From positions 334,722 to 398,721 of the forward strand of contig JAJPHD010000026.1 in NCBI GenBank assembly GCA_021325455.1: DNA of 64,000 nucleotides. The letters are read 5' to 3'. Source of the DNA: Actinomycetota bacterium (lineage in GTDB: Bacteria > Actinomycetota > Acidimicrobiia > Acidimicrobiales > JAJPHD01). Below, one piece after another: positions 3,701-64,000 of this stretch (its first letter is position 1; every line of letters starts with the position of its first letter). Both the position numbers and the translations under genes were made by a program. A model generated the notes under the pieces. The model had not been told where the DNA came from, did no database searches, and saw only the letters and a list, made by a program, of their open reading frames with translations.

Positions 3701-4090
3701 TCAGGCCAGGAACCTGTCCAGGGCGCCCTGGTCCTCCTCGAAGGACCAGAACTCGGTGGCCTTCCCGCCGGCCAGGTGCCAGGTGTGAACGGCTCGCCCC
3801 TCCAGGGTGCGCCCCTCCCGCTCGGCGTGGGCCACCACCATGGCAGCCCCATGCGTGTCGTTGGCCAGGATGTCGTGGACCTGAAGGCGGAAGGTGCCCC
3901 CGGACAGCTCCATGAGCCTGGCGAAGAAGCCCATGACCTCCTGGTGGCCCTTGTAGTCGCCGGTCAGCGGGCTGTCCCCCCCGATGTGCCAGGAGATGTC
4001 CTCGGAGAAGATGGACAGGACCGTGTCCAGGTCGCCGGCACCAAAGGCCTCGTAGCCGCGGCGCAAGAGCTCCTCGTTCGGGTGTGCCAT
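3701..4090 (-). CDS. SnoaL-like / NTF2-fold (ketosteroid-isomerase-like) protein
   Basis: Start re-set to the ATG at 4090 (MAHPNEELLRRGYEAFGAGDLDTVLSIFSEDISWHIGG...), the typical SnoaL_2 N-terminus. The upstream 26 codons of the track ORF look like run-on. Confidence 0.6.
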   Translation of the reverse strand: MAHPNEELLRRGYEAFGAGDLDTVLSIFSEDISWHIGGDSPLTGDYKGHQEVMGFFARLMELSGGTFRLQVHDILANDTHGAAMVVAHAEREGRTLEGRAVHTWHLAGGKATEFWSFEEDQGALDRFLA

Positions 4091-4172: not shown

Positions 4173-5117
4173 CTAGTCGCCGGCCCATCTCCATTCGTGC
4201 TCCCAGCCGCCGGCCTCCAGGGGCTGGCCTCCCAGGCGGAGCTGCCCGGCCCGGCCTGTGCAGCGCCCTATGCACGCCGGCCCGGCAAGACCCGCCATCC
4301 GGAAGGACCGGTCCACGGCGCCGGCGTCGGGGGAGGTGAAGAGGAGCTCGTAGTCCTCCCCGCCGGTCAGCGCCTCGGCCTCCGTTGCCCCCTCGGCCAC
4401 CGGCACGTGGTCCAGGTCCACCCCCACCCCGGAGGCCCGGGCGAGATGCCCGAGGTCAGCAGCCAGGCCGTCGGAGATGTCGATCATGGCCCGGGCCCCA
4501 CCCTCTGCAGCGGCCAGCCCCTCCGCCACCCGGGCCTCGGGCCGGCGGTGGCGACTCGCCAGCGCTCGTGACTCGAGGTCGCCTGAGCCGCCCCGGAGCG
4601 CCCGCAGCCCCGCCGCTGCCGCGCCGAGGGGCCCGGTCACGAACAGGAGGTCCCCTTCCCGGGCTCCGGAGCGCAGGACGGGGAGGCGCCCTCGGGGCAG
4701 CGAGCCGGTGACGGCCACGGACACCGTCACCACCGGGCCGTTGGAAAGGTCACCGCCCACGATGGGGCACCTCCAGCGCCTCGCCGCCTCGACCAGGCCC
4801 GAGTAAAGCAGCCCCAGATCCGTCTCGGGAGGCCCGGCCACGGTCACCAGGGCGTGGCCGGGGACCCCGCCCATGGCGGCGATGTCGCTCACGTTCACGG
4901 CCAGCGCCTTCCAGCCCAGGTCGTCCAGGCCCTCTAGGCCCAGGTCGGCGTGAACCCCGGCCACGACGAGGTCGGCAGCCAGGAGGAGGGGCCCTCCGGG
5001 GGTCTGGACCACGGCCGCATCGTCGCCGACCCACGTCTCCCCCGGGGGCGGGACGCCCAGCCGGGCCGTGAGCAGCTCTTGTATGCGCCCGATGGCGGCG
5101 AACTCTCCGGCGCCCAC
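4173..5117 (-). CDS. thiL: thiamine-monophosphate kinase ThiL
   Basis: Only the C-terminal about 315 aa of track ORF 4173..6329 is real; the rest is antisense to pckG. VGAGEFAAIGRI...GDDAAV...DLVVAGVH...GWKALAVNVSDIAAMGG...GGDLS = AIR-synthase-fold ThiL. GTG at 5117 gives the canonical GEF N-terminus; ATG at 5177 is the alternative start. Confidence 0.85.
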   Translation of the reverse strand: MGAGEFAAIGRIQELLTARLGVPPPGETWVGDDAAVVQTPGGPLLLAADLVVAGVHADLGLEGLDDLGWKALAVNVSDIAAMGGVPGHALVTVAGPPETDLGLLYSGLVEAARRWRCPIVGGDLSNGPVVTVSVAVTGSLPRGRLPVLRSGAREGDLLFVTGPLGAAAAGLRALRGGSGDLESRALASRHRRPEARVAEGLAAAEGGARAMIDISDGLAADLGHLARASGVGVDLDHVPVAEGATEAEALTGGEDYELLFTSPDAGAVDRSFRMAGLAGPACIGRCTGRAGQLRLGGQPLEAGGWEHEWRWAGD

Positions 5118-11423: not shown

Positions 11424-13400
11424 ATGGGAGCAGAGGGCCGCATGCTGTGGGAACCCCCGGCGGCCGTGAGGGAGCGGGCCCGGCTGACCGCCTTCCTCGG
11501 CTGGCTGGCCGACCACCTGGGGCGGCGCTTCGAGGGCTACGAGGACCTGTGGCGCTGGTCGGTCGACGACCTCCCCGGGTTCTGGGGCTCGGTCTGGGAG
11601 TTCAGCGGGCTGGGCGCCTTCGGAGGCTACGAGCGGGTCCTCTCCGGGCGGGAGATGCCGGGGGCCCGCTGGTTCGAGGGGGCCCGGCTCAACTACGCCC
11701 AGCGGGCCCTCGGCCATCCACCGGACCACCTGGCCGTGTCGGCCTGGTCCGAGACGCGGGGACCCGTCACGCTCACCTATGGCGAGCTGGGCGACCAGGT
11801 GGGCGCGGCCGCCGCCGGGCTGCGCCGGCTGGGGGTGGGCAAGGGCGACAGGGTGGCGGCCTTCCTGCCCAACATCCCCGAGACCCTGGTGGCCTTCCTG
11901 GCCACGGCCACCCTGGGGGCGGTGTGGTCCAGCTGCGCCCCGGAGTTCGGTGCCGAGAGCGTGCTGGACCGCTTCACCCAGATCCGGCCCAAGGTCCTCC
12001 TCACCGTGGACGGCTACCGCTACGGCGGGGTGGACCGGGACCGGAGGGCTGTCGCCGGCCGGATCGCCTCCGGCCTGCCCGACCTGGCCGCCACCGTCAC
12101 GGTGGGCTACCTGGGAGGAAGGAAGGCCGAACTGGTGGAAGGGGGAGGCCGGGCCCTCGGCTGGCCCGACCTCCTGGCCGCCCCCACCCCTCCCGAGCCC
12201 GAACCGGTGGCCTTCGACCATCCCCTTTGGGTCCTCTACTCGTCGGGGACCACGGGCCTGCCCAAGGCCATCGTCCACGGGCACGGTGGCATGCTCATCG
12301 AGCACCTGAAGTACCTGGCCCTCCAGGCCGACCTGGGCCCCGACGACCGGTTCTTCTGGTTCACCACGACCGGCTGGATGATGTGGAACTTCCTCGTGAG
12401 CGGGCTGCTCACGGGCTCCACCCTGGTCCTCTACGACGGCAGCCCCGTCCACCCCGGGCCCGAGGCCCTCTGGGAGCTGGCCGAGCGGGCGGGGATCACC
12501 TACTTCGGCACCAGCGCCCCCTACATCCTGGCCCAGCGCCAGAGCGGGACCGACCCCGGCCGCCACCACGACCTTTCCCGCCTTCGGGGGGTGGGCTCCA
12601 CCGGGGCCCCCCTCCCCGCCGAGGGGTTCGAGTGGGTCTACGAGCACGTGGGGTCCGACCTCGTGCTGGGGTCGGTGAGCGGAGGGACCGACGTCTGCAC
12701 CGCCTTCGTAGCCTCCTGCCCCCTCCTGCCCGTCTACGCCGGGGAGTGCCAGTGCCGGGGCCTGGGTGCCCCCGTGGAGGTCTACGACGAGTCGGGGAAG
12801 CCGGTGGTGGACCAGATCGGGGAGCTGGTCCTAACCGCCCCCATGCCCTGCATGCCCGTGGGGTTCTGGGGGGACGAGGACGGCAGCCGGTACCGGGAGA
12901 GCTACTTCTCGACCTTCCCCGGCGTGTGGCGCCACGGCGACTGGGCCCGGCTCACCCCCCGGGGGACCGTGGTGATCACGGGCCGCTCCGATTCCACCCT
13001 CAACCGGGGCGGGGTCCGCATGGGCACCGCAGAGTTCTACCGGGTCGTGGAGCAGGTGGAGGGGGTGGTGGACAGCCTGGTCGTCGACACCTCCGGCGCC
13101 GGCGCCGGCGAGGGCCGGCTGGTTCTTTTCCTGGTCCTGGCCGAGGGGAGGGTGCTTGACGACGCCCAGCGCCGCCGCATCGCCGGGGCCATCCGCTCCG
13201 CCCTCTCCCCCCGCCACGTGCCCGACGAGATGGTCCAGGTCCCCGAGGTCCCGAGGACCCTGTCGGGAAAGAAGCTGGAGGTTCCCGTCAAGCGCCTCCT
13301 GGCCGGCGAGGACGCCAGCAAGGTGGTGAACCTCGGCACCCTGGCCAACCCCTCCTCGGTCGAGGCCCTGCTGGCCGCGGCCGGGAAGGGGACCCCCTAG
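11424..13400 (+). CDS. acetoacetyl-CoA synthetase (acetoacetate-CoA ligase)
   Basis: Start re-set to ATG 11424 (or 11442). MLWEPP...LTAFLGWL...YEDLWRWSVDDLPGFW is the AACS-type N-terminus. AMP-binding motif YSSGTTGLPKAIVH; C-terminal TLSGKKLEVPVKR. Confidence 0.85.
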   Translation: MGAEGRMLWEPPAAVRERARLTAFLGWLADHLGRRFEGYEDLWRWSVDDLPGFWGSVWEFSGLGAFGGYERVLSGREMPGARWFEGARLNYAQRALGHPPDHLAVSAWSETRGPVTLTYGELGDQVGAAAAGLRRLGVGKGDRVAAFLPNIPETLVAFLATATLGAVWSSCAPEFGAESVLDRFTQIRPKVLLTVDGYRYGGVDRDRRAVAGRIASGLPDLAATVTVGYLGGRKAELVEGGGRALGWPDLLAAPTPPEPEPVAFDHPLWVLYSSGTTGLPKAIVHGHGGMLIEHLKYLALQADLGPDDRFFWFTTTGWMMWNFLVSGLLTGSTLVLYDGSPVHPGPEALWELAERAGITYFGTSAPYILAQRQSGTDPGRHHDLSRLRGVGSTGAPLPAEGFEWVYEHVGSDLVLGSVSGGTDVCTAFVASCPLLPVYAGECQCRGLGAPVEVYDESGKPVVDQIGELVLTAPMPCMPVGFWGDEDGSRYRESYFSTFPGVWRHGDWARLTPRGTVVITGRSDSTLNRGGVRMGTAEFYRVVEQVEGVVDSLVVDTSGAGAGEGRLVLFLVLAEGRVLDDAQRRRIAGAIRSALSPRHVPDEMVQVPEVPRTLSGKKLEVPVKRLLAGEDASKVVNLGTLANPSSVEALLAAAGKGTP

Positions 13401-13408
13401 CCGGGCCC

Positions 13409-14338
13409 TCAGACCTCGACCTCGGCCAGGACGTAGGGGTTGAGGGCGGTCCCGAGGAGCGGCGGGGGGAAGCGGGCCAGGGCCGAGCCGAGGACCCGCT
13501 TGGCCAGGGCGGGCAGCCCGGCCCGATCGAGGGAGGAGAAGCCGAAGTAGCCGGCCAGGGGGAGGGGCCGCAACGGCCTCGGGCCGAACCACCGGCGGAG
13601 GTCGCCGTAGGAGGCGAGGTGGTAGGGCCCCCACACGGGATGGAGGTTGACCCCCGTCCGCTCGAACAGCCAGGCCCGGCGGGGAGCGGTGGTCTGGCCG
13701 TCGTTGGGCCCGTGCTGGACGTCGAGGGGGAAGCGGCGGTTGGGGCAGGCCACGAGGATGCGCCCCCCCGGCCTGGTCACCCGGGTCAGCTCGGAGCAGA
13801 ACCGCACCCTGGCCTGCCACCAGCCCGGGGCCAGGGTGAGGTGCCCGGTGGTGGTGCCGACGTGCTCGATGACCCCGAGGGCCAAGACGGCGTCGAAGGT
13901 GCCCGCCTTCATGGGGAGCCGGCCCAGGTCGCCCACCACGAAGCCCTCGGGGTCGTGGCCGAGCTGGGCCCAGCGGGTGGCTACGGAGGCCACGTCCAGG
14001 CCCACCGCCTCCAGGCCGTCGGCCCGCATGGCCTCCACGCCCAGGCCGATCCCGCAACCGGCGTCGAGGACCCGCCGGGCACCCACCCGGTCCAGCCAGG
14101 GCCGCAGGTAGGCGTCGTAGAGGCGGCGTCCCGCCCCTTCCTGGATGCGGGCGCAGGAATCGCTCGTCGTCTCCAGGCGGAGGGCGGGGCTCCCCGCAGC
14201 CGCCAGGTGCAGGAAGCCCGAGGGGCCGGGCCCGAAGCGGTGGCTACCGGCTTGGCACCGGACCTCCCCGCCGGCCGGCTCCATCGCCGAGCCGTCCACC
14301 GGGCAAGCCAGCAGGCGGGCGAGGCGCTCCCAGGGCAC
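13409..14338 (-). CDS. class I SAM-dependent methyltransferase with Trm112-like N-terminal segment
   Basis: Real part of track ORF 13409..14914. GTG at 14338 is in frame (VPWERLARLLACPVDG...). SAM motif I is VLDAGCGIGLG; post-I/II motifs are present (FDAVLALGVIEH, RPGGRILV). Confidence 0.7.
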   Translation of the reverse strand: MPWERLARLLACPVDGSAMEPAGGEVRCQAGSHRFGPGPSGFLHLAAAGSPALRLETTSDSCARIQEGAGRRLYDAYLRPWLDRVGARRVLDAGCGIGLGVEAMRADGLEAVGLDVASVATRWAQLGHDPEGFVVGDLGRLPMKAGTFDAVLALGVIEHVGTTTGHLTLAPGWWQARVRFCSELTRVTRPGGRILVACPNRRFPLDVQHGPNDGQTTAPRRAWLFERTGVNLHPVWGPYHLASYGDLRRWFGPRPLRPLPLAGYFGFSSLDRAGLPALAKRVLGSALARFPPPLLGTALNPYVLAEVEV

Positions 14339-14422
14339 GAGGCGAGCATAGGAACCTCCCAGCGGCGGGCTCCCCCGCCCCGTTTCACCGATTGCCCAGG
14401 GGGCCCTCCGCCAACCCCTAGC

Positions 14423-15676
14423 GTGCGGTGGGTGAGGACCAAGGCGCGGGCGGGGTCCGCCGGCCGCCTGGCGCTGCTGTGGCTGGCGGGGATGGACCTG
14501 CGGGTGACGCTGCTCGCCCTGCCCCCCCTGCTGCCCCTGGTGAGCGCGGACCTGGGGCTGGACCGGGCCGCGGTCGGGGCCCTCACGAACCTCCCGGTCC
14601 TGCTGCTGGGCCTGGCCTCGGTGCTGGGGTCGGCCATCATCGGGCGCCTGGGTGCCAGCCGGGCCCTCCTGGTGGGCCTGGTCACGGTGGCCCTGGCCGG
14701 CGCCCTCCGGGGGGCGGGGGCCGACACCGCCGTGCTGTTCGCCATGACCTTCGCCATGGGAGTGGGGATAGCGGTCCTCCAGCCGGCCCTGCCCACCCTG
14801 GTGCGCCAGTGGCTCCCGGGGGCGGTGGGGCCGGCCACGGCCCTCTACGGCAACGGGCTCCTCGTGGGCGAGGCCCTGGCCGCCTCGATAACCCTGCCCG
14901 CCGTCCTGCCCCACACCGGCTCCTGGGAGGCCAGCCTGGCGGTGTGGTCAGCACCCGTGGCCCTGGCAGCCGGGCTGGCCGCCTGGGTGACCAGGCGGGC
15001 CGAGCCCCCTCCCCTGGCGGGGCGGGGGGAGGCGGGGGCCGCCCCGGCCGAGGATGGCACCCCTCGGCCCGCCGGCCCACCGGCTCCGGCGCAGGCCACC
15101 ACCTCCTGGCCCGACCTGGGGGACTCCCGGGTGTGGAAGCTGGGCCTGGTGCAGGGAGGGGCCTCGGCGGCCTACTTCGCCACCAACACCTTCCTGCCCG
15201 GTTACCTCCACGCTCTGGGGAGCCCCGGCCTCGTGAGCCCCACCCTCGCCGCCCTCAACGTGAGCCAGCTGCCAGCCTCCATCCTCCTCCTCCTCCTCTC
15301 CCGCCGCCTCGTGGGGCCCCGCTGGCCCCTCCTGGGCCTGGGCGGGATCCTGTTGGTGGCGTCCGTGGGCCTCCTGGCCGCCCCCCCACCCGTGCTCTTG
15401 GCCCCCGTGGTCGCCATCGGCTTCTCCTCCTCGCTCCTCCTGCTCCTCACCCTGGCCCTGGCCCCCGTGTGGGCCGGCCGGGAGGAGGTGGCCCGCCTGT
15501 CAGCGGGGATGTTCAGCGTGGGCTACACCCTGGCCTTCGCCCTTCCCGTGCTGGGTGGGGTGGCCTCGGATGTGTCGGGCTCGCTCACCATGACCCTGGT
15601 GCCGGCGCTGGTGGGGGCGGTGCTGGTGGGCGTCTCGGCGCTCACCCTGGGCGCCGGAGGGCCCCTGCGCGGTTAA
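14423..15676 (+). CDS. MFS transporter (CynX/NimT-like)
   Basis: Real part of track ORF 13619..15676. GTG at 14423 is in frame. About 12 hydrophobic helices (LALLWLAGMDLRVTLLALPPLLP...), typical of a cyanate-permease-like MFS. Confidence 0.7.
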   Translation: MRWVRTKARAGSAGRLALLWLAGMDLRVTLLALPPLLPLVSADLGLDRAAVGALTNLPVLLLGLASVLGSAIIGRLGASRALLVGLVTVALAGALRGAGADTAVLFAMTFAMGVGIAVLQPALPTLVRQWLPGAVGPATALYGNGLLVGEALAASITLPAVLPHTGSWEASLAVWSAPVALAAGLAAWVTRRAEPPPLAGRGEAGAAPAEDGTPRPAGPPAPAQATTSWPDLGDSRVWKLGLVQGGASAAYFATNTFLPGYLHALGSPGLVSPTLAALNVSQLPASILLLLLSRRLVGPRWPLLGLGGILLVASVGLLAAPPPVLLAPVVAIGFSSSLLLLLTLALAPVWAGREEVARLSAGMFSVGYTLAFALPVLGGVASDVSGSLTMTLVPALVGAVLVGVSALTLGAGGPLRG

Positions 15677-16546: not shown

Positions 16547-17908
16547 TCAACGGGACAGGCCCACCCCGTCCCCGTCCGGGCGGCGCCGGCCCTCCCGCAC
16601 CCGTGTCCTGCCCTCAGGGGCCGCCACCAGGTCCCTCCAGGGCGGGGAGGCATGGCTGGGCGTGAGGCGGACCGAGGCCGGGGGGCGCCCCGCCTCCAGG
16701 TAGACGGCCCGGCCCCGGACTCCCTGGCTCAGGGCTGCGACCGGCACCCGGGGCTGGCGCCTGGTGGACCACGTCGTGGTGGAGCTGAGGCCACCCCGCT
16801 GCCACCAGCGGCCCGAGCGGCTGACCGAGCGGACAGGGACGTCCAGGTCACCGCAAAGGGCCGACAGGGCCTCCAGGATCCTGGCCTCCCCCAGCCCGGG
16901 GAGGATCAGCTTGGCCCGGAAGTGGCTGAGGAAGCCGCCGGCAGCGGCCGGGCCCCAGCGGTCCCGGGCCTGGGAGAGGTCCTGGAAGCAGGCCGGCACC
17001 AGCACCCCCTGGCCTCCGCCCTCCGAGACGATGCGGGGGAGGCTGGGGAGGGGGGCGATGTTGGCCACCTCGTCCAGGGCCAGCACCACGGCCGGAGGGA
17101 CGGGGCGGGAACCCGCCTCCCCGGCGGCACGGTAGGCGGCTGAGCACACCTCTTCGAGCAAGGACACCACCAGCGGCCCCACCAGGTCCTGGGACCCCGA
17201 GGGAGCGCATATGTAGACCGTGTCCCGCGAGCGCACGAAGGCCCCGGGCTCGAAGTTGGGCCGGCGGGTGGTGGCCAGGGCGGCATCGGTCTGGTAGGCG
17301 GAGATGGCCTGCGCCGCGGTGGAGAAGATGGCCGACAGCTCACGGTCCTCGCAGTCCGTGACCCCCGCCAGCACGTCCGCGGCCAGCGGCGAGCCCTGCT
17401 CACCGAGGACCGCCTCGGCGGGAGAGACCTGCCTGCGGTTCACCCACCGGCTCACGTCCTCCATGGAGGCCCCGCACACTCCCCCGGCATGGAGAAGCGG
17501 CGCCAGCAGGGCCTCGGCCCGGCCCTTCCAGTGGTCGGCGTCGAGGGTGCCCCGGCCGGAGGAGGAGGTGGCCACCAGCCGGCGCGCCACCAGCCGGGCC
17601 GTCTCCCAGCGGGCCGAGGCCGGGACGGGCGACCACCGCAGGGCCCTCACGCCGGCCGGGACCCCCACCTCTCCGGTGGGGTCGAACAGCCAGCACTCCC
17701 CGGACCGGCTCCGGTGGGCGAGGGTGGCAGCCAGCACATCGGGCTTGGTGGAGGTGGAGACCACCGGCCCTCCCCCGGCCAGGACGTTGGGGATGACGAG
17801 GGACGAGGTCTTGCCCGACCGGGGCGGTCCCAGCACCAGGAGGTGGGCCTCGGGAGGGGCCCACGCCCACCCCGCCGGCGTGGCTCCCAGGTACAGGGAG
17901 GGGGTCAC
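16547..17908 (-). CDS. VirD4/TraG-family type IV coupling-protein-like P-loop ATPase, lacking an N-terminal TM anchor
   Basis: 453 aa. Walker A LVLGPPRSGKTSSLVIPNVL (the VIPN signature of TraG/VirD4), Walker B VVLALDEVANIAPLP, and a TraG-D_C-like C-terminus. GTG start 9 nt after the stop of the upstream CoA-transferase gene. Confidence 0.75.
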   Translation of the reverse strand: MTPSLYLGATPAGWAWAPPEAHLLVLGPPRSGKTSSLVIPNVLAGGGPVVSTSTKPDVLAATLAHRSRSGECWLFDPTGEVGVPAGVRALRWSPVPASARWETARLVARRLVATSSSGRGTLDADHWKGRAEALLAPLLHAGGVCGASMEDVSRWVNRRQVSPAEAVLGEQGSPLAADVLAGVTDCEDRELSAIFSTAAQAISAYQTDAALATTRRPNFEPGAFVRSRDTVYICAPSGSQDLVGPLVVSLLEEVCSAAYRAAGEAGSRPVPPAVVLALDEVANIAPLPSLPRIVSEGGGQGVLVPACFQDLSQARDRWGPAAAGGFLSHFRAKLILPGLGEARILEALSALCGDLDVPVRSVSRSGRWWQRGGLSSTTTWSTRRQPRVPVAALSQGVRGRAVYLEAGRPPASVRLTPSHASPPWRDLVAAPEGRTRVREGRRRPDGDGVGLSR

Positions 17909-17917
17909 CGCCGCCGG

Positions 17918-47469: not shown

Positions 47470-48630
47470 ATGTTCCACAGCATGATCCAGCTCATCCCAC
47501 ACCAGGTCGTCCCACTCGGGCACTCTCAAGCTAATGGCGTGGTGGTCGTCACCGTGGCCGCCCTGGGCGCAGCCCTCCTGTTCGCCCTGGCCTCGGTGCT
47601 GCAACATCGCTCGGCTGAGCGGGAGTCGGAGGAGGCCACCTTCCGGGTGCACCACATGGGCCGCCTCGTGCTCCGGCCCGTGTGGCTGGCGGGGATCCTC
47701 GCTGACGCCGGGGGCTACGTCCTGCAGTTCATCGCCCTGAGGCAGGGGACCCTCGTCGTGGTCCAGGTCCTGCTGGTGAGCGGCCTCCTCTTCGCCCTGC
47801 CGCTGGCGGCGGCCTTCAACCGGCGCCGCCCCCACACCGTGGAGCTCGTGGGTGCCCTTGCCGTGGTGTGCGGGCTCGCCCTGTTCCTGGTCGTGGCCCG
47901 GCCTGCCCCCGGCTTCGTGGAGGCCTCGAACTTCACCTGGGGCCTGACCCTGATTGGCACCTTGGTGCCTGCCGGCCTGCTGGTGGGCCTGGCCGGGCGG
48001 AGGCCGGGGATCAGGCGGGCGGTGCTGCTGGCAGCAGCGTCCGGCATCGCCTACGGGCTCACGGCCGCCCTGACCAAGGCCACGGCCGACCTGCTCAGCT
48101 TCGGATGGCTCCGGCTGGCTCTCGGATGGCAGACCTACGCCCTGGCCGCCATCGGGCTGCTTACGCTCTTCATGACCCAGAAGGCATTCCACGCCGGGCC
48201 CCTGCGCGCCTCCCTGCCGACCCTCAGCGTCGTGGACCCGGTGGTGAGCATCATCATCGGGGCCCTGGCCCTGGGCGAGAGCATCGCCACCGTGGGACTG
48301 CACCTGCCCGTGGAGGTGCTGGCCCTGGCCCTGCTCACGGTGGGCGTCGTCATCCTGGCCCGCTCCACCCTGGTGAGCGGCGAGGTGCCGTCCCCGGGGG
48401 GCAAGGAGGGCCGGGCCGGCCCGCCCGGACTTCCCGGCCCGGCCCCCAGCCCGTCCCGGGGCCCGGCCCAGGGTCCCAATCCCGTCAGCCACGCTTCCCC
48501 CCCACTACCGTGGCCCTTCCATGAGCTCCCTACCTCCCCGCCGGCTGACCCAGTACAGCCACGGCGCTGGCTGAGCCTGCAAGCTCGCCCCGGGCGAGCT
48601 GGCACAGGTTCTGCGCCGCCTGACCCCTAG
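47470..48630 (+). CDS. DMT-superfamily-like 10-TM transporter (paralog B) with P/G-rich C-terminal tail
   Basis: 386 aa as listed. The true start is probably GTG 47539 (VVVVTVAALGAALLFALASVLQH aligns with the paralog A N-terminus). The last 110 nt overlap selD out of frame and have lower GC3 than the selD frame. Confidence 0.6.
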   Translation: MFHSMIQLIPHQVVPLGHSQANGVVVVTVAALGAALLFALASVLQHRSAERESEEATFRVHHMGRLVLRPVWLAGILADAGGYVLQFIALRQGTLVVVQVLLVSGLLFALPLAAAFNRRRPHTVELVGALAVVCGLALFLVVARPAPGFVEASNFTWGLTLIGTLVPAGLLVGLAGRRPGIRRAVLLAAASGIAYGLTAALTKATADLLSFGWLRLALGWQTYALAAIGLLTLFMTQKAFHAGPLRASLPTLSVVDPVVSIIIGALALGESIATVGLHLPVEVLALALLTVGVVILARSTLVSGEVPSPGGKEGRAGPPGLPGPAPSPSRGPAQGPNPVSHASPPLPWPFHELPTSPPADPVQPRRWLSLQARPGRAGTGSAPPDP

Positions 48631-49594
48631 CACCCACCCGGACCTCCTGGTGGGAACCAGCACCGGTGACGACGCCGCCGTGTGGCGCCTGGACCAGTCG
48701 CGCGCCCTGGTGGTGACGGCCGACTTCATCACCCCGGTGGTGGACGATGCCCGGACCTGGGGGCGCATAGCGGCGGTAAACGCTGCCAGTGACGTGTGGG
48801 CCATGGGGGGCCGCCCCCTCCTGGCCCTCAACCTCGTGGCCTGGAACTCCGAGGAGCTGGGCACAGACGTGCTGGTGGAGGTCCTGGAGGGGGCCGCCGA
48901 GGCGGCCACCGAGGGACACTGGGTGGTGGCGGGCGGTCACACGGTGGACGACCCGGAGCCCAAGTTCGGCCAGGCCGTGGTGGGCGAGGCTCACCCCGGC
49001 CGCCTCCTCACCAATGCCGGCCTGCGCCCGGGCGACCACCTGGTGCTGACCAAGGCCCTCGGCACGGGGATCGTGACCACTGCCCTCAAGGCGGGGGTGG
49101 CCACCACCGAGGTGGAGGCGGCGGCGGTGGCCTCCATGGGCCGCCTCAACGACCAGGCCGCCGAGCAGGCCCTCCTGGCGGGGGCCACGGGCGCCACCGA
49201 CATCACGGGCTTCGGGCTCCTCGGCCACCTGGCCAAGATGGCCGAGGCCTCGGGGGTCGACGTGACCCTGGACGCCGCCGCCGTGCCCCTCCTCCCCGGG
49301 GCGGGCGAGCTGGCCCTCGCCGGCCATGTCCCGGGAGGCAGCCGGCGCAACCTGGACTGGGTGCGGGAGCGCCTGGCCACGACGCCGGAGGGCCCGGGGC
49401 CCGACGACCTCACCCTCACGGTCCTGGCCGACGCCCAGACCTCAGGGGGGTTGCTGTTCGGCGCCCCCCTGGAGGCGGCCGCGGCGGCGGCGGCCGCCCT
49501 GCGGGCCAGCGGTCATGCCGCCGCCGTGATCGGGGCCGTCACCGGGCTAGGCACCGGCCGCATTGCCCTCAGCGGCCGCCTGGCTCCCTCCTGA
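48521..49594 (+). CDS. selD: selenide, water dikinase SelD, selenocysteine-containing (in-frame TGA at 48572-48574)
   Basis: Own translation from ATG 48521: MSSLPPRRLTQYSHGAG-TGA-ACKLAPGELAQVL..., compared with E. coli RLTQYSHGAGCGCKISP. The TGA sits exactly at the catalytic Cys/Sec. The same frame continues into track ORF 48650..49594 (GDDAAV, GGHTVDD, DITGFGLLGH, PGGSRRN). Confidence 0.9.
48576..48608 (+). promoter_or_regulatory. SECIS-like hairpin immediately downstream of the selD UGA
   Basis: Lower stem CCUG/CAGG (48576-79 / 48605-08), an internal loop, then upper stem AGCUCGC/GCGAGCU (48582-88 / 48594-600) with apical loop CCCGG. The apex is about 17-20 nt after the UGA. Confidence 0.6.
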
Positions 49595-49718: not shown

Positions 49719-51284
49719 TCAGTCCTGGAGCCGGAACCCCGGGTCCCCGGCCAGCTCCCCCACGTCCATCTGGGCCCGCTGCAGGTGGCCCGAGTAGTCC
49801 CAGTTGACGGCCTGCCAGCGGGTGAACTGGTCGAGCACCCACATACCCGACTGACGGCTGCCGTTGCCGGACTTGCCGTTCCCGCCGAAGGGAAGGTGGG
49901 CCTCCGCCCCGGAGGTGGAGTTGTTGATGCTCACCATGCCGGCGCTGATGCCCCGGCGGAAGTGGAAGGCCGAAGTGGCCGATGTCGTGTAGATGGACGA
50001 TGACAGCCCGTAGCCCGAGGCATTGGCCAGCGAGAGGGCGTGGTCGAGGTCCACGCACGACGCCACCCCTACGATGGGGCCAAAGGTCTCGGTAACGAGC
50101 AGGTCATCGCCTGCCACCACCCCGTCCACGATGGTGGGATGGCAGTAGAGCCCGGCGTCGGGGTCCCCGACGAACCCCTCCCTCGGGCTCTCCCCGCTGG
50201 TGATGCGCCCGGTGCCGGTCGACCCCAGCACCCGATGATGGGGCTGCACCAGCCCCAGGTGGTCATCGCAGAAGCGCTGCAGGAACCTCTCGTCCAGCAT
50301 GGGGCCGTAGAGCACGTCCCGGAAGGGGTCCCCGATGGCCGCCGTCGCCACCCGGCCCGCTAGGCGCTCCACGAACTGGTCGTGGACGGCCTCCTCGACG
50401 ATGGCGGTGCCGAGCGAGGTGCAGCGCTGGCCGGCGGTGCCGAAGCCGGAGAACAGGGCCCCCTCCACGGCCAGGTCCAGGTCGGCGTCGGCCATGACCA
50501 CCATGGGGTTCTTGCCCCCCAGCTCCAGGCAAGGGGACTGGAGGTGGCTCCCGCACAGCTCCCCGATCCTGGCCCCCACCTCCGACGAGCCCGTGAAGCC
50601 CACCTTGTCCACCAGGCCGGCGTCGAGCGCCTGGGAGAGGCCCGTGAAGGTGGCCGGCCCGTCCGCCATGACCAGGTTGAGGACCCCCGGGGGCAGGCCC
50701 CCCTGGTTGAAGATCTCGAACAGGGCGGCGGCGCTGGCGGCGGCGTACTCGGCGGGCTTCCACACCACGGTGTTGCCGCACAGGAGCGCCGGCACCAGGT
50801 ACCACGACGGGACGGCCACCGGGAAGTTCCCGGCCGTTATCACCGCCACCACGCCCACCGGGTTGCGGTAGGTGAAGAGGGCCTTGTCCGGCATCTCCGA
50901 GGGGACGGTCTGGCCGTAGAGCCGCCGGCCCTCGCCGAGGAAGAAGTCGCAAGTGTCCACGATCTCCTGCACCTCGCCGCGCGCCTCCACCAGCGGCTTG
51001 CCGATGTCGCGCGTCACCAGGCGGGCCAGGGCCTCCTTGTTGGCTTCCACCAGGCGCCCGATCTGGGCGATGGCCCGTCCCCGCACCGGCGCCGGGACGT
51101 CGGCCCAGGCCAGCTGGGCGGACCGGGCCGCCTGGCAGGCCTCGGCCAGGGTGGCGGCGTCCCCGAGCGCCACCTCGGCCACCACCTCGTCCAGGTGGGC
51201 CGGGTTGCGGGAGCTCAACTTGCCCCCGGGGCCGGCGGGGTCGGCCTTGCCGGCGATGACCGAGCACACGGTGCGGGTGCTCAT
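49719..51284 (-). CDS. pcd: aldehyde dehydrogenase, probable piperideine-6-carboxylate (alpha-aminoadipate-semialdehyde) dehydrogenase
   Basis: Start re-set to ATG 51284, which overlaps the lat stop (ATGA). ALDH motifs WKPAE, FTGSSEVG, ELGGKNP, catalytic GQRCTS. The specific function is inferred from coupling to lat. Confidence 0.8.
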   Translation of the reverse strand: MSTRTVCSVIAGKADPAGPGGKLSSRNPAHLDEVVAEVALGDAATLAEACQAARSAQLAWADVPAPVRGRAIAQIGRLVEANKEALARLVTRDIGKPLVEARGEVQEIVDTCDFFLGEGRRLYGQTVPSEMPDKALFTYRNPVGVVAVITAGNFPVAVPSWYLVPALLCGNTVVWKPAEYAAASAAALFEIFNQGGLPPGVLNLVMADGPATFTGLSQALDAGLVDKVGFTGSSEVGARIGELCGSHLQSPCLELGGKNPMVVMADADLDLAVEGALFSGFGTAGQRCTSLGTAIVEEAVHDQFVERLAGRVATAAIGDPFRDVLYGPMLDERFLQRFCDDHLGLVQPHHRVLGSTGTGRITSGESPREGFVGDPDAGLYCHPTIVDGVVAGDDLLVTETFGPIVGVASCVDLDHALSLANASGYGLSSSIYTTSATSAFHFRRGISAGMVSINNSTSGAEAHLPFGGNGKSGNGSRQSGMWVLDQFTRWQAVNWDYSGHLQRAQMDVGELAGDPGFRLQD

Positions 51285-52639
51285 GCCTGCTCCTCCATGC
51301 GGGCGATCACCCGGTCCAGGGCCGCCACCGCCATCTCCAGCTCCTCGGCCCCTACGGTGAGGGCGGGGCGGAAGCGGATGGCCCTCTCGCCGCAGCCCAG
51401 GGCCAGGACGTGCTCCTCGGTCCGCAGCCGGCGCAGGGCCTCGTCGCGCTGGGCCGGGCCCGGCAGGTCGATGGCGCACATGAGGCCCCGCCCCCGGGCA
51501 TTGGACACCAGCCCGGGATGGGCGGCCGCCAGCTTCTCCAGCCCCGCCAGCAAGCCCTCCCCGAGTTCGGCGGCCCTCGGGAAGAGCCGATCGCGCTCCA
51601 TGATCTCAAGGAGCCGGCGGGAGCGCACCATGTCGGCCAACCCGCCGCCCCAGGTGGAGTTGATGCGAGAGCTGACCCTGAACACGTTGTCCGCCACCTC
51701 GTCCACCCGGCGACCGGCCATGATCCCCCCCACCTGCACCTTCTTGGCGAAGGCCACGATGTCCGGCTCCAGGCCCATCTGCTGGTAGGCCCAGGCCGTG
51801 CCGGTCAGACCCACCCCTGTCTGGACCTCGTCCAGCACGAACAGGGCATCGTGCTCATGGCACATGTCCTGCATGGCCCGGAGGAACTCAGGCCGCAGGT
51901 GGTTGTCCCCCCCTTCGCTCTGTATGGGCTCGGCGATGAAGCAGGCGATGTCGTGGGGATGGGCAGCGAAGGCCTCCTCGGCCTGAGCGAGGGCCCGGCG
52001 CTCGGCCTCCTCCACCTCCCCCCGGTGCTCCTCCAGGGGGAACACCACGGCGGGACAATCGATACGGGGCCAGTCGAAGACCGGGAAGCGCTCGGTCTTC
52101 ACGGGGTCGGTGTTGGTGAGGGAAAGGGTGTACCCGCTGCGCCCGTGGAAGGCGTGGCGCAGGTGCATCACCCTCGTGCCCAGAGAGGCAGGCCGCCCGT
52201 GCGCTTCGTTGTGGCGGCTCTTCCAGTCGAAGGCACACTTGAGGGCGTTCTCCACCGCCAGCGCACCGCCCTCCACGAAGAACAGGTGCGGCAGGGCGGG
52301 GTCGCCGAGCACCCGCCAGAAGGTCCGGACGAACTCGGCCAGCTCCACGGTGTAGGTGTCGGGGTTGGCCGGCTTGTTGGCCGCCACGCGCCCCAGGTAG
52401 GACACGAACTCGGGGTCATCGGCCAGCCCCGCCGGGTTCATGCCCAGGGGGAGCGAGGCGAAGAAGGTGTAGACGTCCAGGTACTCCTCTCCTGTCCTGG
52501 CATCCACCAGCCATGACCCGTGGCTCGCAGCGATATCGAGCACCAAGCGGAAGCCGTCCACCAGGAGGTGCTGTCCGAGCTCCTCGTGAACCTGCTCGGG
52601 GGGCAGGGGGCGGGCGGTAGGGAGCGACGTCGTTGCCAT
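51281..52639 (-). CDS. lat: L-lysine 6-transaminase (L-lysine-epsilon aminotransferase)
   Basis: 452 aa, collinear with mycobacterial Lat as I recall it: LPHLFFVEGGALAVENALK.AFDWKSRHN, FHGRSGYTLSLTNT, FDWPRID, EPIQ.EGGD, FDEVQTG.GLTGTAWAYQQ, STWGG. Confidence 0.92.
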   Translation of the reverse strand: MATTSLPTARPLPPEQVHEELGQHLLVDGFRLVLDIAASHGSWLVDARTGEEYLDVYTFFASLPLGMNPAGLADDPEFVSYLGRVAANKPANPDTYTVELAEFVRTFWRVLGDPALPHLFFVEGGALAVENALKCAFDWKSRHNEAHGRPASLGTRVMHLRHAFHGRSGYTLSLTNTDPVKTERFPVFDWPRIDCPAVVFPLEEHRGEVEEAERRALAQAEEAFAAHPHDIACFIAEPIQSEGGDNHLRPEFLRAMQDMCHEHDALFVLDEVQTGVGLTGTAWAYQQMGLEPDIVAFAKKVQVGGIMAGRRVDEVADNVFRVSSRINSTWGGGLADMVRSRRLLEIMERDRLFPRAAELGEGLLAGLEKLAAAHPGLVSNARGRGLMCAIDLPGPAQRDEALRRLRTEEHVLALGCGERAIRFRPALTVGAEELEMAVAALDRVIARMEEQA

Positions 52640-52737
52640 GCCCCCATCGTAGGGAGGCCCCCCTGCCGACGCCTCCCGGGCCGTCAGGATCCCCGTTCCC
52701 CCCGGCTACACTGCCTGCTTCCGCCCCTGGATCACCC

Positions 52738-60116: not shown

Positions 60117-60145
60117 TTGCGGTATCGAACTGGTGTTCGTAGGAT
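60117..60145 (+). promoter_or_regulatory. imuB promoter: TTGCGG - 17 nt - TAGGAT
   Basis: The -35-like TTGCGG is at 60117-22 and the -10 TAGGAT at 60140-45 (fits TANNNT). The spacer is almost entirely the LexA box. It lies about 48 nt upstream of the imuB GTG, which has an AGGAGAG SD. Confidence 0.5.
60125..60140. promoter_or_regulatory. LexA (SOS) box TCGAAC-TGGT-GTTCGT
   Basis: 15 of 16 bases match (16-bp site) the actinobacterial/mycobacterial SOS box TCGAAC-N4-GTTCGA. It overlaps the -10 element of the imuB promoter. Confidence 0.8.
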
Positions 60146-60193
60146 GGGAGACCCGGGCCACCGGGCGGAGCAAAGCTGGAGCGAGCAGGAGAG

Positions 60194-61453
60194 GTGGTGG
60201 CCTTGAGCCAGGTCGTCGTGTCCCCGGAGGGCCCTACCCTCCTCGAGCGCAGGAGCGAGGTCGGCTGCCTGCTGGTGCCGCGCTTCCCGCTGGCCTGCGA
60301 AGTGGCCGAGCGCCCCTGGTTGGCCGGCCTGCCGGTGGCGGTGGCCGACCCCTCTTCCCCGGTGGTGTGGACAGCCTCTCCCGAGGCGGAGGCAGAGGGA
60401 GTGGCGCCCGGTCAACCTCTGTCCGAGGCCCTGGGGCGGTGCCCTTCCCTGGCCGTGCTCGAGGGACGGCCGGCCCGCTATGCCAGTGTGGCCGAGGAGG
60501 TCATGGCCTGCCTGGAAGGGGCAGCCCCGGGGGTGGAAGAAGGCCCCCCCGGTGTGGCCTGGGTGGAGCGGGTGGACCGCCTGGGTTCTTCCTCACAAGG
60601 CTGGTGGGCCGGGTTGCTGGCCTGCCTTCCTCCCCACCTCGGCCGGGTCCCACCCCGCCTCCAGCCCCGCCTGGGTGTGGCCCCCGCCAAGTTCGCCGCC
60701 CTGGTCGCCGCCCACGGGGCCCCGGGTGGGGGCATCCTGGCCCTCGAGGCGGAGTCCATGGCCGCCTACCTGGAGCGCCAGCCCGTCGCCGTGCTGCCCG
60801 TCCCGGCCGAGGTCCGCCGGCGGCTGGTCCTCATGGGCATCACCACGCTGGGGCGGCTCTCCGGCCTGCCCCGCTCGGCCGTGGTGGCCCAGTTCGGCCC
60901 GGTCGGGGGCCGGGCCTGGGACCTGGCCCGGGGCCAGGCCGAGCCGGTGCGCCCCCGGGCCCACCCCGTGAAGGTGGTGGGCCGGCTCCTCCTCTCCGAG
61001 CCCCTGTCCAGTCGGGAGGCCCTGCTGGCAGCGGCGGAGCAGACCTTGTCCCGGGCCGTGCGCCAGCCCCGCTTCCGGGGAAGGGCGGCCCGCCGGGCTC
61101 GCCTGCTCGCCGTGGACGAGCGGGGCGGGGCCTACGACCGGACGGTCACCTTCAAGTCCGCTCTGGCTGGCAGGAGGGCATTGTGGACCGTGCTGCGCCC
61201 CTACCTGGCCGAGGCCCGCCTGCCTGCCCCGGTGAGCGAGATCTCCATCGAGCTGGACGGGCTCTGCCCCCAGCGGGGACAGCAAGGCGAGCTGCTCCCC
61301 CCCCGGATGGCCCCCCAGCGGGAGCGCCTGGAGGAGTGCCTGCGCCAGCTCAAGGCCCGTTACGGCTACTGCCCCGTCGGGCGGGTGGTGGCGGTGGAGC
61401 CATGGAGCAGGATCCCCGAGCGGCGGCTGGCCCTCATCGACTTCGACCTCTAG
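60194..61453 (+). CDS. imuB: ImuB, catalytically inactive Y-family polymerase-like subunit of the SOS mutasome
   Basis: 419 aa. N-terminal CLLVPRFPLACEV replaces the DinB D-x-D catalytic motif. Y-family palm and little-finger-like layout (GVAPAKFAALVAA..., LPVPAEVRRRLVLMGITTLGRL). A LexA box lies upstream and dnaE2 downstream. Confidence 0.85.
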   Translation: MVALSQVVVSPEGPTLLERRSEVGCLLVPRFPLACEVAERPWLAGLPVAVADPSSPVVWTASPEAEAEGVAPGQPLSEALGRCPSLAVLEGRPARYASVAEEVMACLEGAAPGVEEGPPGVAWVERVDRLGSSSQGWWAGLLACLPPHLGRVPPRLQPRLGVAPAKFAALVAAHGAPGGGILALEAESMAAYLERQPVAVLPVPAEVRRRLVLMGITTLGRLSGLPRSAVVAQFGPVGGRAWDLARGQAEPVRPRAHPVKVVGRLLLSEPLSSREALLAAAEQTLSRAVRQPRFRGRAARRARLLAVDERGGAYDRTVTFKSALAGRRALWTVLRPYLAEARLPAPVSEISIELDGLCPQRGQQGELLPPRMAPQRERLEECLRQLKARYGYCPVGRVVAVEPWSRIPERRLALIDFDL

Positions 61454-62352: not shown

Positions 62353-62457
62353 GCTGGCTGGCCCTCGTCCCTCCCCTTCGCTCGGCCCGGCACCGGGCAG
62401 AGGCATCCCCCCGGTACCCAGGCCCGCCCCGGCCGCTCCCGCTGCCGGGTCTCTGTC

Positions 62458-63348
62458 ATGACCCCAGGGACCGGCTCCCCCCTCGCCGGCCAGTCTGCCG
62501 TCGTGACCGGCGCCAGCAGTGGCATCGGCTTCCACACAGCCCTGCTCTTCGCCAGGCGAGGGGCATCCGTCACCATCACCGGGCGTGACCCGAAGCGGGG
62601 CGCCGGAGCCGTGGCGGCCATCCGGGCCGCGGCCGGGCACGGGGCGGTGCGGTTCATGGCTTGTGACCACTCGCTGGCCGCGGCCAACCAGGACCTGGCC
62701 GCCCGCCTGACGAGCTCCCTCGACCGCCTCGACCTGCTGGTGAACAACGTAGGGGGCATCTCGGCCAAGCGGCGGGTCACCGAAGAGGGCATCGAGTGGT
62801 CCCTGGCCGTCAACTTCCTCGCCCCCTTCACCCTCACCGGGGCCCTCCTCCCCAAGCTCAGGGAGAGCCCCGGCGTCAGCCGGTGCCCGAACGTCGTCTC
62901 CAGCGCCTACAAGATGGCCAGGGGGGACCCCTTCGAGGACCTGCAGGCCGCCCGGTCCTACGTGGGTATCGAGGTCCACGGACGAGCCAAGCTCTTCACC
63001 CTGCTGTGGTCACTCGGCTTGAGCCGCCACACCCCGCCCAGAGAGCTCGTGGTGGTGGCCGTGAACCCGGGGATGACCTGGACGCCGATGACCCAGTCCA
63101 TGACCCCTGAGGTGGTCCCGGCATGGAGGTACTTCTTCCCCGTCGTGCGGGCCTTCCAGCGCCGGGCCCATCCGGCTCGTGCCGCCGGGAACTGCGAGCG
63201 GCTCGCCCTGGCTACCCTTCAGGCCGTCTCGGGGCGCTACTTCGACGGCAAGAAGCCCAAGCGGCTCCCCGATCAGCTCGGCGATCCGGAGCTCATCGAG
63301 CGGGTCATGCGTATCGGGATGCAGTTGCGCTCCTCGGCCTTGGCCTGA
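62458..63348 (+). CDS. short-chain dehydrogenase/reductase (SDR) family oxidoreductase
   Basis: 296 aa. Cofactor motif AVVTGASSGIGFHTA, LVNNVGG, and an active-site region SSAYKMA. Confidence 0.8.
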   Translation: MTPGTGSPLAGQSAVVTGASSGIGFHTALLFARRGASVTITGRDPKRGAGAVAAIRAAAGHGAVRFMACDHSLAAANQDLAARLTSSLDRLDLLVNNVGGISAKRRVTEEGIEWSLAVNFLAPFTLTGALLPKLRESPGVSRCPNVVSSAYKMARGDPFEDLQAARSYVGIEVHGRAKLFTLLWSLGLSRHTPPRELVVVAVNPGMTWTPMTQSMTPEVVPAWRYFFPVVRAFQRRAHPARAAGNCERLALATLQAVSGRYFDGKKPKRLPDQLGDPELIERVMRIGMQLRSSALA

Positions 63349-63376
63349 CAGCCCGACTCAGGTATCACGGCTATTG

Positions 63377-63392
63377 TAGAACACATGTTCGA
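63377..63392. promoter_or_regulatory. LexA (SOS) box TAGAAC-ACAT-GTTCGA
   Basis: 15 of 16 bases match (16-bp site) TCGAAC-N4-GTTCGA. It lies 53 nt upstream of the dnaE2 ATG, and TATTGT (TANNNT) at 63372-77 abuts it. Confidence 0.75.
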
Positions 63393-63444
63393 GGCCAGGA
63401 GCCGGCCGGCCTCAGCCGCCCCGTCACCGAGACCGTCCCTTTCG

Positions 63445-64000
63445 ATGCCGGTTGAGACCGGTTCCTGCCCAAGGAGCTCCGGTCCATCCAGCCATGAGAC
63501 CAGCGGCCCGGGCCAGCCCGCCCCGGACTATGTGGAGCTGCACGTCCACACCAACTACTCGCTCTTGGAAGGAGCCTCCCATCCCCGGGAGCTGGTCGAG
63601 CAAGCCGCCGACTACGGGTACCGGGCTCTCGCCATCACCGACCGGGACAATCTCCATGGGGCGCTCGAGTTCGCCCGCCTGTGCCGGGAGCGCGGCATCC
63701 AGCCCATTGCCGGCGTGGAGCTGACGGTGGCTGAGGACCCCGACGCCGACCCGGGCCAGGAGCCCGGCCAGGGGAGCCGCCATTCACTGGTGCTGCTGGC
63801 CGAGACCCGCCGGGGCTGGGCCAACCTGTGCCGGCTGGTCAGCCTGGCCCACGGGCATGCCGAGACCACCCAGGCCGGCCGGGAGCGGCGCCGGCGGGAC
63901 CCCTGCCTGGCCCGCCGATACCTCGCCAGCCACTCGGCCGGGCTCATCTGCCTGACCGGAGGCCGGCGCAGCGAGGTGGCCATGGCGGTCGACGCCGGTC
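63445..64000 (+). CDS. dnaE2: error-prone DNA polymerase III alpha subunit DnaE2 (ImuC), N-terminal PHP domain; runs off the right edge
   Basis: Own translation from ATG 63445: MPVETGSCPRSS...PDYVELHVHTNYSLLEGASHPRELVEQAADYGYRALAITDRDNLHGALEFARLCRERGIQPIAGVEL...HSLVLLAETRRGWANLCRLVS = PHP domain. Absent from the track because it has no stop in the window. Confidence 0.88.
   Translation, partial: MPVETGSCPRSSGPSSHETSGPGQPAPDYVELHVHTNYSLLEGASHPRELVEQAADYGYRALAITDRDNLHGALEFARLCRERGIQPIAGVELTVAEDPDADPGQEPGQGSRHSLVLLAETRRGWANLCRLVSLAHGHAETTQAGRERRRRDPCLARRYLASHSAGLICLTGGRRSEVAMAVDAG

Follow-up and report, generated by a model that had tools for sequence, protein, structure and literature searches.

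Selenide, water dikinase (SelD) is the second most widespread selenoprotein family of prokaryotes, and switching between its selenocysteine (Sec) and cysteine forms is documented (PMC13188914). Within the Acidimicrobiia, a Sec form of SelD has been reported in Actinomarina (bioRxiv 10.64898/2026.04.03.716425). The RNA signals that direct Sec insertion in bacteria (bacterial selenocysteine insertion sequences, bSECIS) follow a consensus with an apical loop of 3–9 nt on a stem of 4–16 bp, a G within the first two loop positions that is usually followed by G or U, a distance of 16–37 nt between the UGA and the loop, and a folding energy of −7.5 kcal/mol or lower (PMC13188914). In actinobacteria, the SECIS of the formate dehydrogenase alpha subunit (FdhA) has been described for mycobacteria (PMC13449736). 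Truncation of selenoproteins by gene callers is a standard annotation failure (PMC1088965). Here, we analyse a selD gene carried by a stretch of 64,000 nucleotides from an Actinomycetota bacterium of the order Acidimicrobiales (contig JAJPHD010000026.1, positions 334,722 to 398,721; hereafter the window). Judging from sequence comparisons, we put at about 88% the probability that this is a functional selD whose catalytic Sec is specified by the UGA at 48572–74, and we infer that Sec is inserted in this organism. The coordinates of all features are collected in Table 1.

The TGA falls at the catalytic position of the enzyme. For profile comparison it was replaced by cysteine in the 357-aa read-through product, which scored 359.5 bits against the SelD equivalog TIGR00476 (cutoff 125) and 329.4 bits against NF002098 (cutoff 299; residues 7–342 on profile positions 6–336 of 347). 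The match to the SelD profile starts, with profile position 1, at residue 8, i.e. upstream of the TGA. Among solved structures, E. coli SelD (3u0o; E = 5e-71) matches best, and the alignment runs unbroken from residue 8 to 346 of the query and from 7 to 340 of 3u0o. In the alignment with 3u0o_A the TGA stands opposite Cys17 and the query Lys21 opposite Lys20; Cys17 and Lys20 are both essential to the activity of E. coli SelD. In the structure of Aquifex SelD (2yye) the cysteine of the GCAAK motif, which presumably stands in for the native Sec, occupies the same column as the TGA. The initial annotation, made from the sequence alone, had placed the TGA exactly where SelD enzymes carry their catalytic Cys or Sec; the comparison with TIGR00476 and the Cys17 column bear this out. 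The AIRS N- and C-terminal domains (PF00586 and PF02769) are among the precomputed assignments for the truncated public product of the gene (P0001). A SelD-like protein, SenC-type, also occurs in selenoneine clusters; such a paralogue was considered here and rejected, as the SelD equivalog scores are above the cutoffs and no senA- or senB-like neighbours were seen.

The ATG at 48521, the TGA and the stop codon at 49592–94 share one reading frame, in which this TGA is the only one; the translation reads MSSLPPRRLTQYSHGAG, then the TGA, then ACKLAPGELAQVL... and so on to the stop. The mechanical list of open reading frames (ORFs) holds for selD only the 314-aa ORF with a GTG start (48650..49594), and the same truncated product is present in the public protein collection (P0001, 100% identity). 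An independent Logan assembly (L081, a contig of 4.3 kb) matches the window without a single difference over 4,291 bp, TGA included, and the TGA is therefore not an assembly error; there, selD is called at L081:3049-3993. L082, the closest relative, is 86% identical, keeps the gene order and has the TGA; here the gene caller chose another, still later start, giving 295 aa. The called starts are therefore arbitrary. The frame, the ORF list, the public product and the calls in the two other assemblies thus all agree with the earlier statement that selD is interrupted by a UGA and truncated in the ORF track.

The interrupted frame is shared by relatives. For comparison, a collection of species-representative genomes supplied 80 related loci, mostly metagenome-assembled genomes of Acidimicrobiales/Acidimicrobiia together with several Pseudonocardia, Actinomadura and Euzebyales. 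The aligned codon is TGA in 68 of these loci, TGC in ten and TGT in two. The peptide that precedes it, RRLTQ[FY]SHGAG, is in frame and conserved in all 80; the peptide that follows, [AG]CKLAPGEL, is conserved in frame, and from the TGA to 48650 (ACKLAPGELAQVLRRL...) the encoded protein sequence is conserved in 80/80 loci, Cys-type genes included. The 357 codons of the window gene align with those of L082 with 0 gaps; 76 codons differ synonymously and 43 nonsynonymously, and in the 17 codons 5′ of the TGA there are three synonymous differences and one nonsynonymous difference. This gapless and mostly synonymous divergence points to purifying selection. Moreover, TGA is the commonest genuine stop codon in the window (24 of the 33 confident ORFs), which argues for site-specific recoding and not for a reassigned genetic code.

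In each locus we folded the 57 nt that follow the TGA, whose T is counted as position 1. A pair of hairpins that abut directly, hairpin 1 (positions 11–29) and hairpin 2 (positions 30–46), recurs in the Sec-type genes and is missing from the Cys-type genes. RNAalifold, run unprompted on a gapless alignment of 69 Sec-type sequences, returned exactly these two hairpins. When pairs were counted on the 67 distinct sequences, 94.5% of the cells were paired (94.0% in hairpin 1 and 95.1% in hairpin 2), compared with 27–44% when the 3′ partners were slid by 1–3 columns. Eight of the 15 pairs, four in each hairpin, show changes on both sides, and one pair of hairpin 2 is divided almost evenly between the two orientations (CG:28 / GC:26). 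None of 500 shuffles reached the observed percentage of pairing or the observed covariation score. When a tree was built from the protein without the hairpin codons, parsimony placed on it at least 21 independent double-compensatory events in eight pairs (at least 10 in hairpin 1 and at least 11 in hairpin 2). The 12 Cys-type genes encode a similar peptide, yet on the same structure they are 63.9% paired, no better than shuffles. Both hairpins are conserved, covarying RNA structures that are absent from Cys-type homologues.

Codon usage carries the same imprint. Third-position entropy in the stem codons of Sec-type genes lies between 0.0 and 0.7 overall (0.12 for Leu+4, 0.36 for Gly+7, 0.53 for Ala+10 and 0.0 for codon +13), compared with 1.71 for Pro+6 and 1.67 for Val+12 in the loops and about 1.3–1.9 for background four-fold sites; in Cys-type genes, these stem codons vary without such restriction. 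Some compensations alter two amino acids together (Leu/Glu to Ile/Asp, Gln/Leu to His/Val), which is hard to explain by protein-level selection alone. The two hairpins differ in how strictly they are kept. All 70 Sec-type genes form at least six of the seven pairs of hairpin 2, with an invariant G37-U38. Hairpin 1 has degenerated to four or five of its eight pairs in three loci (L016, L024 and L030), which keep the TGA and an intact hairpin 2. An intrinsic terminator or attenuator was also considered and rejected, as no U-tract follows either hairpin.

The initial annotation had drawn a single bipartite SECIS-like hairpin at this place. Its upper stem, our hairpin 1, stood up to the comparison, being 94.0% paired and covarying. 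Its lower stem did not: in the 67 distinct Sec-type sequences 64.0% of the cells are paired, covariation is essentially nil and most sequences break three of the pairs. The bipartite hairpin, lower plus upper stem, is the minimum free-energy fold of the window's own sequence, but such a fold is unremarkable in DNA of 73% G+C (z = −1.83; 13 of 200 shuffles fold as well). Significance beyond chance comes from the comparison with relatives, and for the upper stem only. In the window, hairpin 1 folds with −14.3 kcal/mol and a pairing probability of about 1.0.

The Sec or Cys status of selD has switched at least six times on a tree of 82 genes. One of the Cys-type genes (TGC), from Pseudonocardia (L020), lies at a protein distance of 0.11 from a Sec-type gene (L045) and keeps about seven of the eight pairs of hairpin 1 (L020:2278-2325). 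This remnant looks like a fossil SECIS left by a recent change from Sec to Cys.

We may wonder at this stage which of the two hairpins recruits SelB. In loop size, stem length, G-then-U apex and spacing, hairpin 2 lies within the bSECIS consensus, with its GUU loop, its 7-bp stem (one A·C mismatch) and a spacing of 33 nt. Hairpin 1 lies outside it, with a CCG loop and a spacing of 15 nt. The geometry expected of a bacterial SECIS, which the initial annotation had attributed to its own hairpin, is therefore not that of hairpin 1, whose C-C-N loop and distance from the UGA both fail the consensus; hairpin 2, which had gone unmentioned, satisfies it in loop and spacing. A second gene provides a point of reference. 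Two of the related loci (L043 and L076, from Pseudonocardia) encode a Sec-type FdhA (NF041513, 2001 bits for a cutoff of 1400), at L043:11812-15285 (+ strand, TGA at 12532) and on the − strand of L076 (TGA at 4876). Its SECIS is a single G+C-rich hairpin of 7 bp at +16 to +32, capped by G-U-C at positions 23–25, a geometry that we take to match that of E. coli fdhF. The G-U apex is common to this element and to hairpin 2. It should be noted that the fdhA gene of L043 adjoins tRNA-Sec and that both loci carry a Cys-type selD. Because hairpin 2 fits the consensus in loop, stem and spacing, is retained in every Sec-type gene and shares the FdhA-like apex, we consider it the probable SelB-binding core, hairpin 1 then being a folded spacer or accessory helix.

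Translation would thus start at ATG 48521. At the UGA, SelB with Sec-tRNA(Sec) would be recruited by an RNA signal located in the coding sequence immediately downstream, Sec would be inserted and translation would continue to 49594. In the Acidimicrobiia and some Pseudonocardiales this signal would consist of the two directly abutting hairpins: hairpin 2, with its invariant G-U apex, most likely binds SelB, and hairpin 1 most likely serves as a structured spacer or stabiliser, keeping the distance between hairpin 2 and the ribosome workable. More tentatively, the actinobacterial Sec-type selD genes may possess a distinct two-hairpin recoding signal, in which the SelB-binding hairpin is 33 nt from the UGA, compared with about 19 nt in FdhA of these lineages, and hairpin 1 could have a separate function. 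As a folded spacer, hairpin 1 might bring the distance back to the canonical value; it might make the ribosome pause at its mRNA entrance while the UGA is in the A site, or be a switch that adjusts SelD synthesis to the selenium supply. In the lineage of the window, an alternative long hairpin can also form by extension of hairpin 1, at the expense of hairpin 2.

Several observations weigh against a Sec-decoded selD in which hairpin 2 binds SelB. On direct reading of the sequence there is no obvious Shine–Dalgarno motif before ATG 48521. ARAGORN finds no tRNA gene in the 64-kb window, and tblastn with the SelA and SelB proteins of an actinobacterial locus (L074) gives no match there at E <= 1e-3. 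Rfam yields no match in the window at the gathering threshold and, up to E = 10, only unrelated noise in 48480–48700, although its models reportedly cover bacterial SECIS elements poorly. In the window itself hairpin 2 has an A·C mismatch (48604/48614), which results from a synonymous GCG to GCA change and is also found in L082, and alone it folds with −7.4 kcal/mol, just short of the −7.5 of the consensus. Moreover, in the thermodynamic model the form with the lower stem is more stable than the tandem form (−25.0 vs −21.7 kcal/mol), and the pairing probability of hairpin 2 is about 0; a consensus G at 48604 would bring the tandem structure to −27.1 kcal/mol. The lower stem holds the G and A of the UGA together with the next bases, and we would expect it to be melted by a ribosome that has the UGA in its A site. 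Finally, hairpin 2 lies 33 nt from the UGA, towards the upper limit of the range and 14 nt beyond the spacing of the FdhA SECIS of relatives, and the apex of hairpin 1 is nearer to the E. coli geometry, so that hairpin 1, in spite of a C-C-N loop, could be where SelB binds.

This last arrangement, in which the gene is Sec-decoded but SelB binds hairpin 1 and hairpin 2 is accessory or constrained for another reason, seems unlikely to us but has real arguments in its favour. The apex of hairpin 1, at +19 to +21, is near the loops of the FdhA SECIS in relatives (+23 to +25) and of the E. coli fdhF SECIS (+22 to +25); the hairpin is also very stable and covaries. On the other hand, its loop and its 15-nt spacing are outside the published consensus, its decay in three loci has left the TGA and hairpin 2 in place, and its loop is unlike the FdhA apex of related actinobacteria, which hairpin 2 resembles.

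In favour of Sec decoding, relatives do possess the Sec machinery. In the Pseudonocardia-type relatives selA-selB lies divergently beside selD and tRNA-Sec is within 10 kb. In the Acidimicrobiales relatives neither selA, selB nor tRNA-Sec was found within 10 kb of selD. In the complete genomes of Actinomarina, which also belong to the Acidimicrobiia, the Sec-type selD, selA, selC and a divergent selB are scattered on the chromosome (bioRxiv 10.64898/2026.04.03.716425). Family scans of 37 ORFs of the window revealed no selenium-related function. Two minus-strand ORFs downstream of selD (about 629 and 475 aa), whose sizes suggested selB and selA, proved to encode an aldehyde dehydrogenase and a lysine 6-transaminase. 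Likewise, the ORFs that adjoin tRNA-Sec in L045 were rejected as selA and selB, being an amidase and CinA; selA and selB of this locus were found across selD by motif and tblastn. The initial annotation had also raised the prospect of other TGA-interrupted selenoprotein genes in this genome. In the 64-kb window none emerged from a check of TGA junctions and a motif scan: the junctions of ORFs with high G+C at third codon positions, at 3701(−), 17918(−), 57772(−) and 63346(+), are those of adjacent, unrelated genes. When the window and all loci were scanned for an in-frame TGA with a G[GU]-loop hairpin behind it, the window gave no further candidate, and the other loci only FdhA of L043 and L076.

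If the TGA were a real stop, the locus would encode a peptide of 17 residues and, by separate initiation at GTG 48650 or nearby, a protein of 314 aa. This is what gene callers predict, and an in-frame GTG does exist at 48650. We nevertheless regard it as very improbable. The SelD profile already starts to match before the TGA, at residue 8, and the 314-aa product would be without the equivalents of Cys17 and Lys20. The codons from the TGA to 48650 are protein-conserved in all 80 loci and are certainly translated in the Cys-type genes. Lastly, the 295-aa call in L082, at a different and later start, shows that the choice of start is arbitrary.

Slightly less credible still is a pseudogene, in which the TGA would be a nonsense mutation of an ancestral Cys codon in a decaying gene. 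The change from TGC or TGT to TGA takes a single base and 12 of the 80 homologues are of the Cys type; the lack of Sec machinery in the window and the mismatch in hairpin 2 of the window gene would also suit such decay. However, the same TGA occurs in 68/80 loci across several orders, the 17 upstream codons are in frame and conserved, there is neither a frameshift nor a further stop, and the full-length SelD match is above the cutoff. The codon differences from L082 are mostly synonymous, and two covarying hairpins specific to TGA-bearing genes are not expected to persist in a dead gene. A sense codon in close relatives combined with other disabling lesions in this gene, the pattern that the initial annotation had named as the mark of a pseudogene, is thus not what we observed: the TGA is shared and the frame is intact.

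That the hairpins are a mere by-product of protein constraint on KLAPGELAQVL in G+C-rich DNA, with no selected RNA structure, can practically be dismissed: the region does encode a conserved part of the N-terminal loop and the single-sequence z of −1.83 is modest, but Cys-type homologues with a similar peptide pair no better than shuffles, third positions are frozen in the stems and free in the loops of Sec-type genes, and compensatory pairs, with at least 21 independent double changes, alter two amino acids in concert.

Table 1. Features of the selD locus in the window.
Feature	Position	Strand	Remarks
Full selD coding sequence, one in-frame TGA probably read as Sec	48521..49594	+	357 codons plus stop
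ATG start of selD	48521..48523	+	MSSL... start common to the 86%-identical relative L082
TGA, probable Sec codon; residue 18, counterpart of Cys17 in E. coli SelD	48572..48574	+	
Truncated 314-aa ORF with GTG start, without the catalytic Sec/Lys loop	48650..49594	+	From standard gene finders
Hairpin 1: 8-bp stem 48582-89/48593-600, loop CCG (C-C-N)	48582..48600	+	Positions 11-18/22-29
Hairpin 2: 7-bp stem 48601-07/48611-17, loop GUU 48608-10 (G-U-N)	48601..48617	+	Positions 30-36/40-46
Lower stem of the initial annotation, 48573-79/48605-11; competes with hairpin 2, not conserved	48573..48611	+	From the single-sequence minimum free-energy fold

Upstream of selD, the ORF at 47470–48630 (+) encodes a DMT-family transporter whose family match extends only to residue 299 of 386. 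Its Pro/Gly-rich tail runs 110 nt into selD (48521–48630) in another frame. The L082 orthologue stops about 180 nt short of the selD start, and the overlap is therefore not conserved; it is probably due to the ORF reading on through low-complexity DNA of the GGCCCGGCCC type at about 48400–48480. Downstream and convergent with selD, a lysine catabolism pair occupies 49719–52705 (−), with the lysine 6-transaminase (TIGR03251, 713 bits) followed by an aldehyde or piperideine-6-carboxylate dehydrogenase; the pair has the same position in L082.

Farther along the window, 60143–61453 (+) encodes a weak homologue of Y-family polymerases (69 bits for a cutoff of 367), possibly ImuB-like, and 63349–63999 (+) encodes the N-terminus of a PHP-domain polymerase, DnaE2-like, which runs off the end of the window. 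An SDR gene (62353–63348) lies between the two. The Y-family homologue and the DnaE2-like ORF may form an error-prone polymerase cassette. On the minus strand, 16547–17917 and 13409–14947 are large coding-like ORFs without any NCBIfam match at 1e-15. The former has a P-loop, GPPRSGKTS, and the look of a coupling protein of the TraG/TraD type; it is located directly downstream of a CaiB-family CoA-transferase.

For annotation, the consequence would be that the public 314-aa entry is to be replaced by a selenoprotein of 357 aa, and the same holds for dozens of homologues in Acidimicrobiia and Pseudonocardia. A Sec-type selD would mark the organism as a user of selenocysteine, and it implies a feed-forward dependence, because the synthesis of SelD then needs its own product. 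The two-hairpin alignment could serve as a lineage-specific SECIS model where Rfam has none, and it offers a clean example of RNA-level selection inside a coding sequence. The current understanding of selenoprotein biology is left unchanged: the initial annotation had judged a Sec-containing SelD not to be new biology, rightly so in view of the family's documented forms (PMC13188914; bioRxiv 10.64898/2026.04.03.716425).

Compared with known Sec-type SelD, the gene of the window indeed shows no essential difference, except that it is public only as the truncated 314-aa product. The known enzymes likewise have Sec in place of the catalytic Cys in a G-A-G-U-x-C-K loop and a stem-loop in the coding region after the UGA; their truncation by gene callers is routine, and Sec and Cys forms interconvert among close relatives. 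With the bSECISearch consensus and its prototype, E. coli fdhF, hairpin 2 shares its location in the coding region and a small apical loop with G then U. The prototype consists of one hairpin, with a lower stem that starts directly behind the UGA; in selD, by contrast, the UGA and hairpin 2 are separated by a conserved, covarying 19-nt hairpin that adjoins hairpin 2 without a spacer. We did not find this conserved two-hairpin layout of actinobacterial selD described; it would be a modest variation, bacterial SECIS elements being acknowledged as diverse. The FdhA SECIS of L043 and L076 has in common with hairpin 2 a 7-bp stem and the G-U apex, and depends on the same lineage-level Sec machinery, with selA-selB and tRNA-Sec adjacent. 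It is, however, a single hairpin at +16 to +32, whereas its equivalent in selD lies at +30 to +46 and is preceded by hairpin 1.

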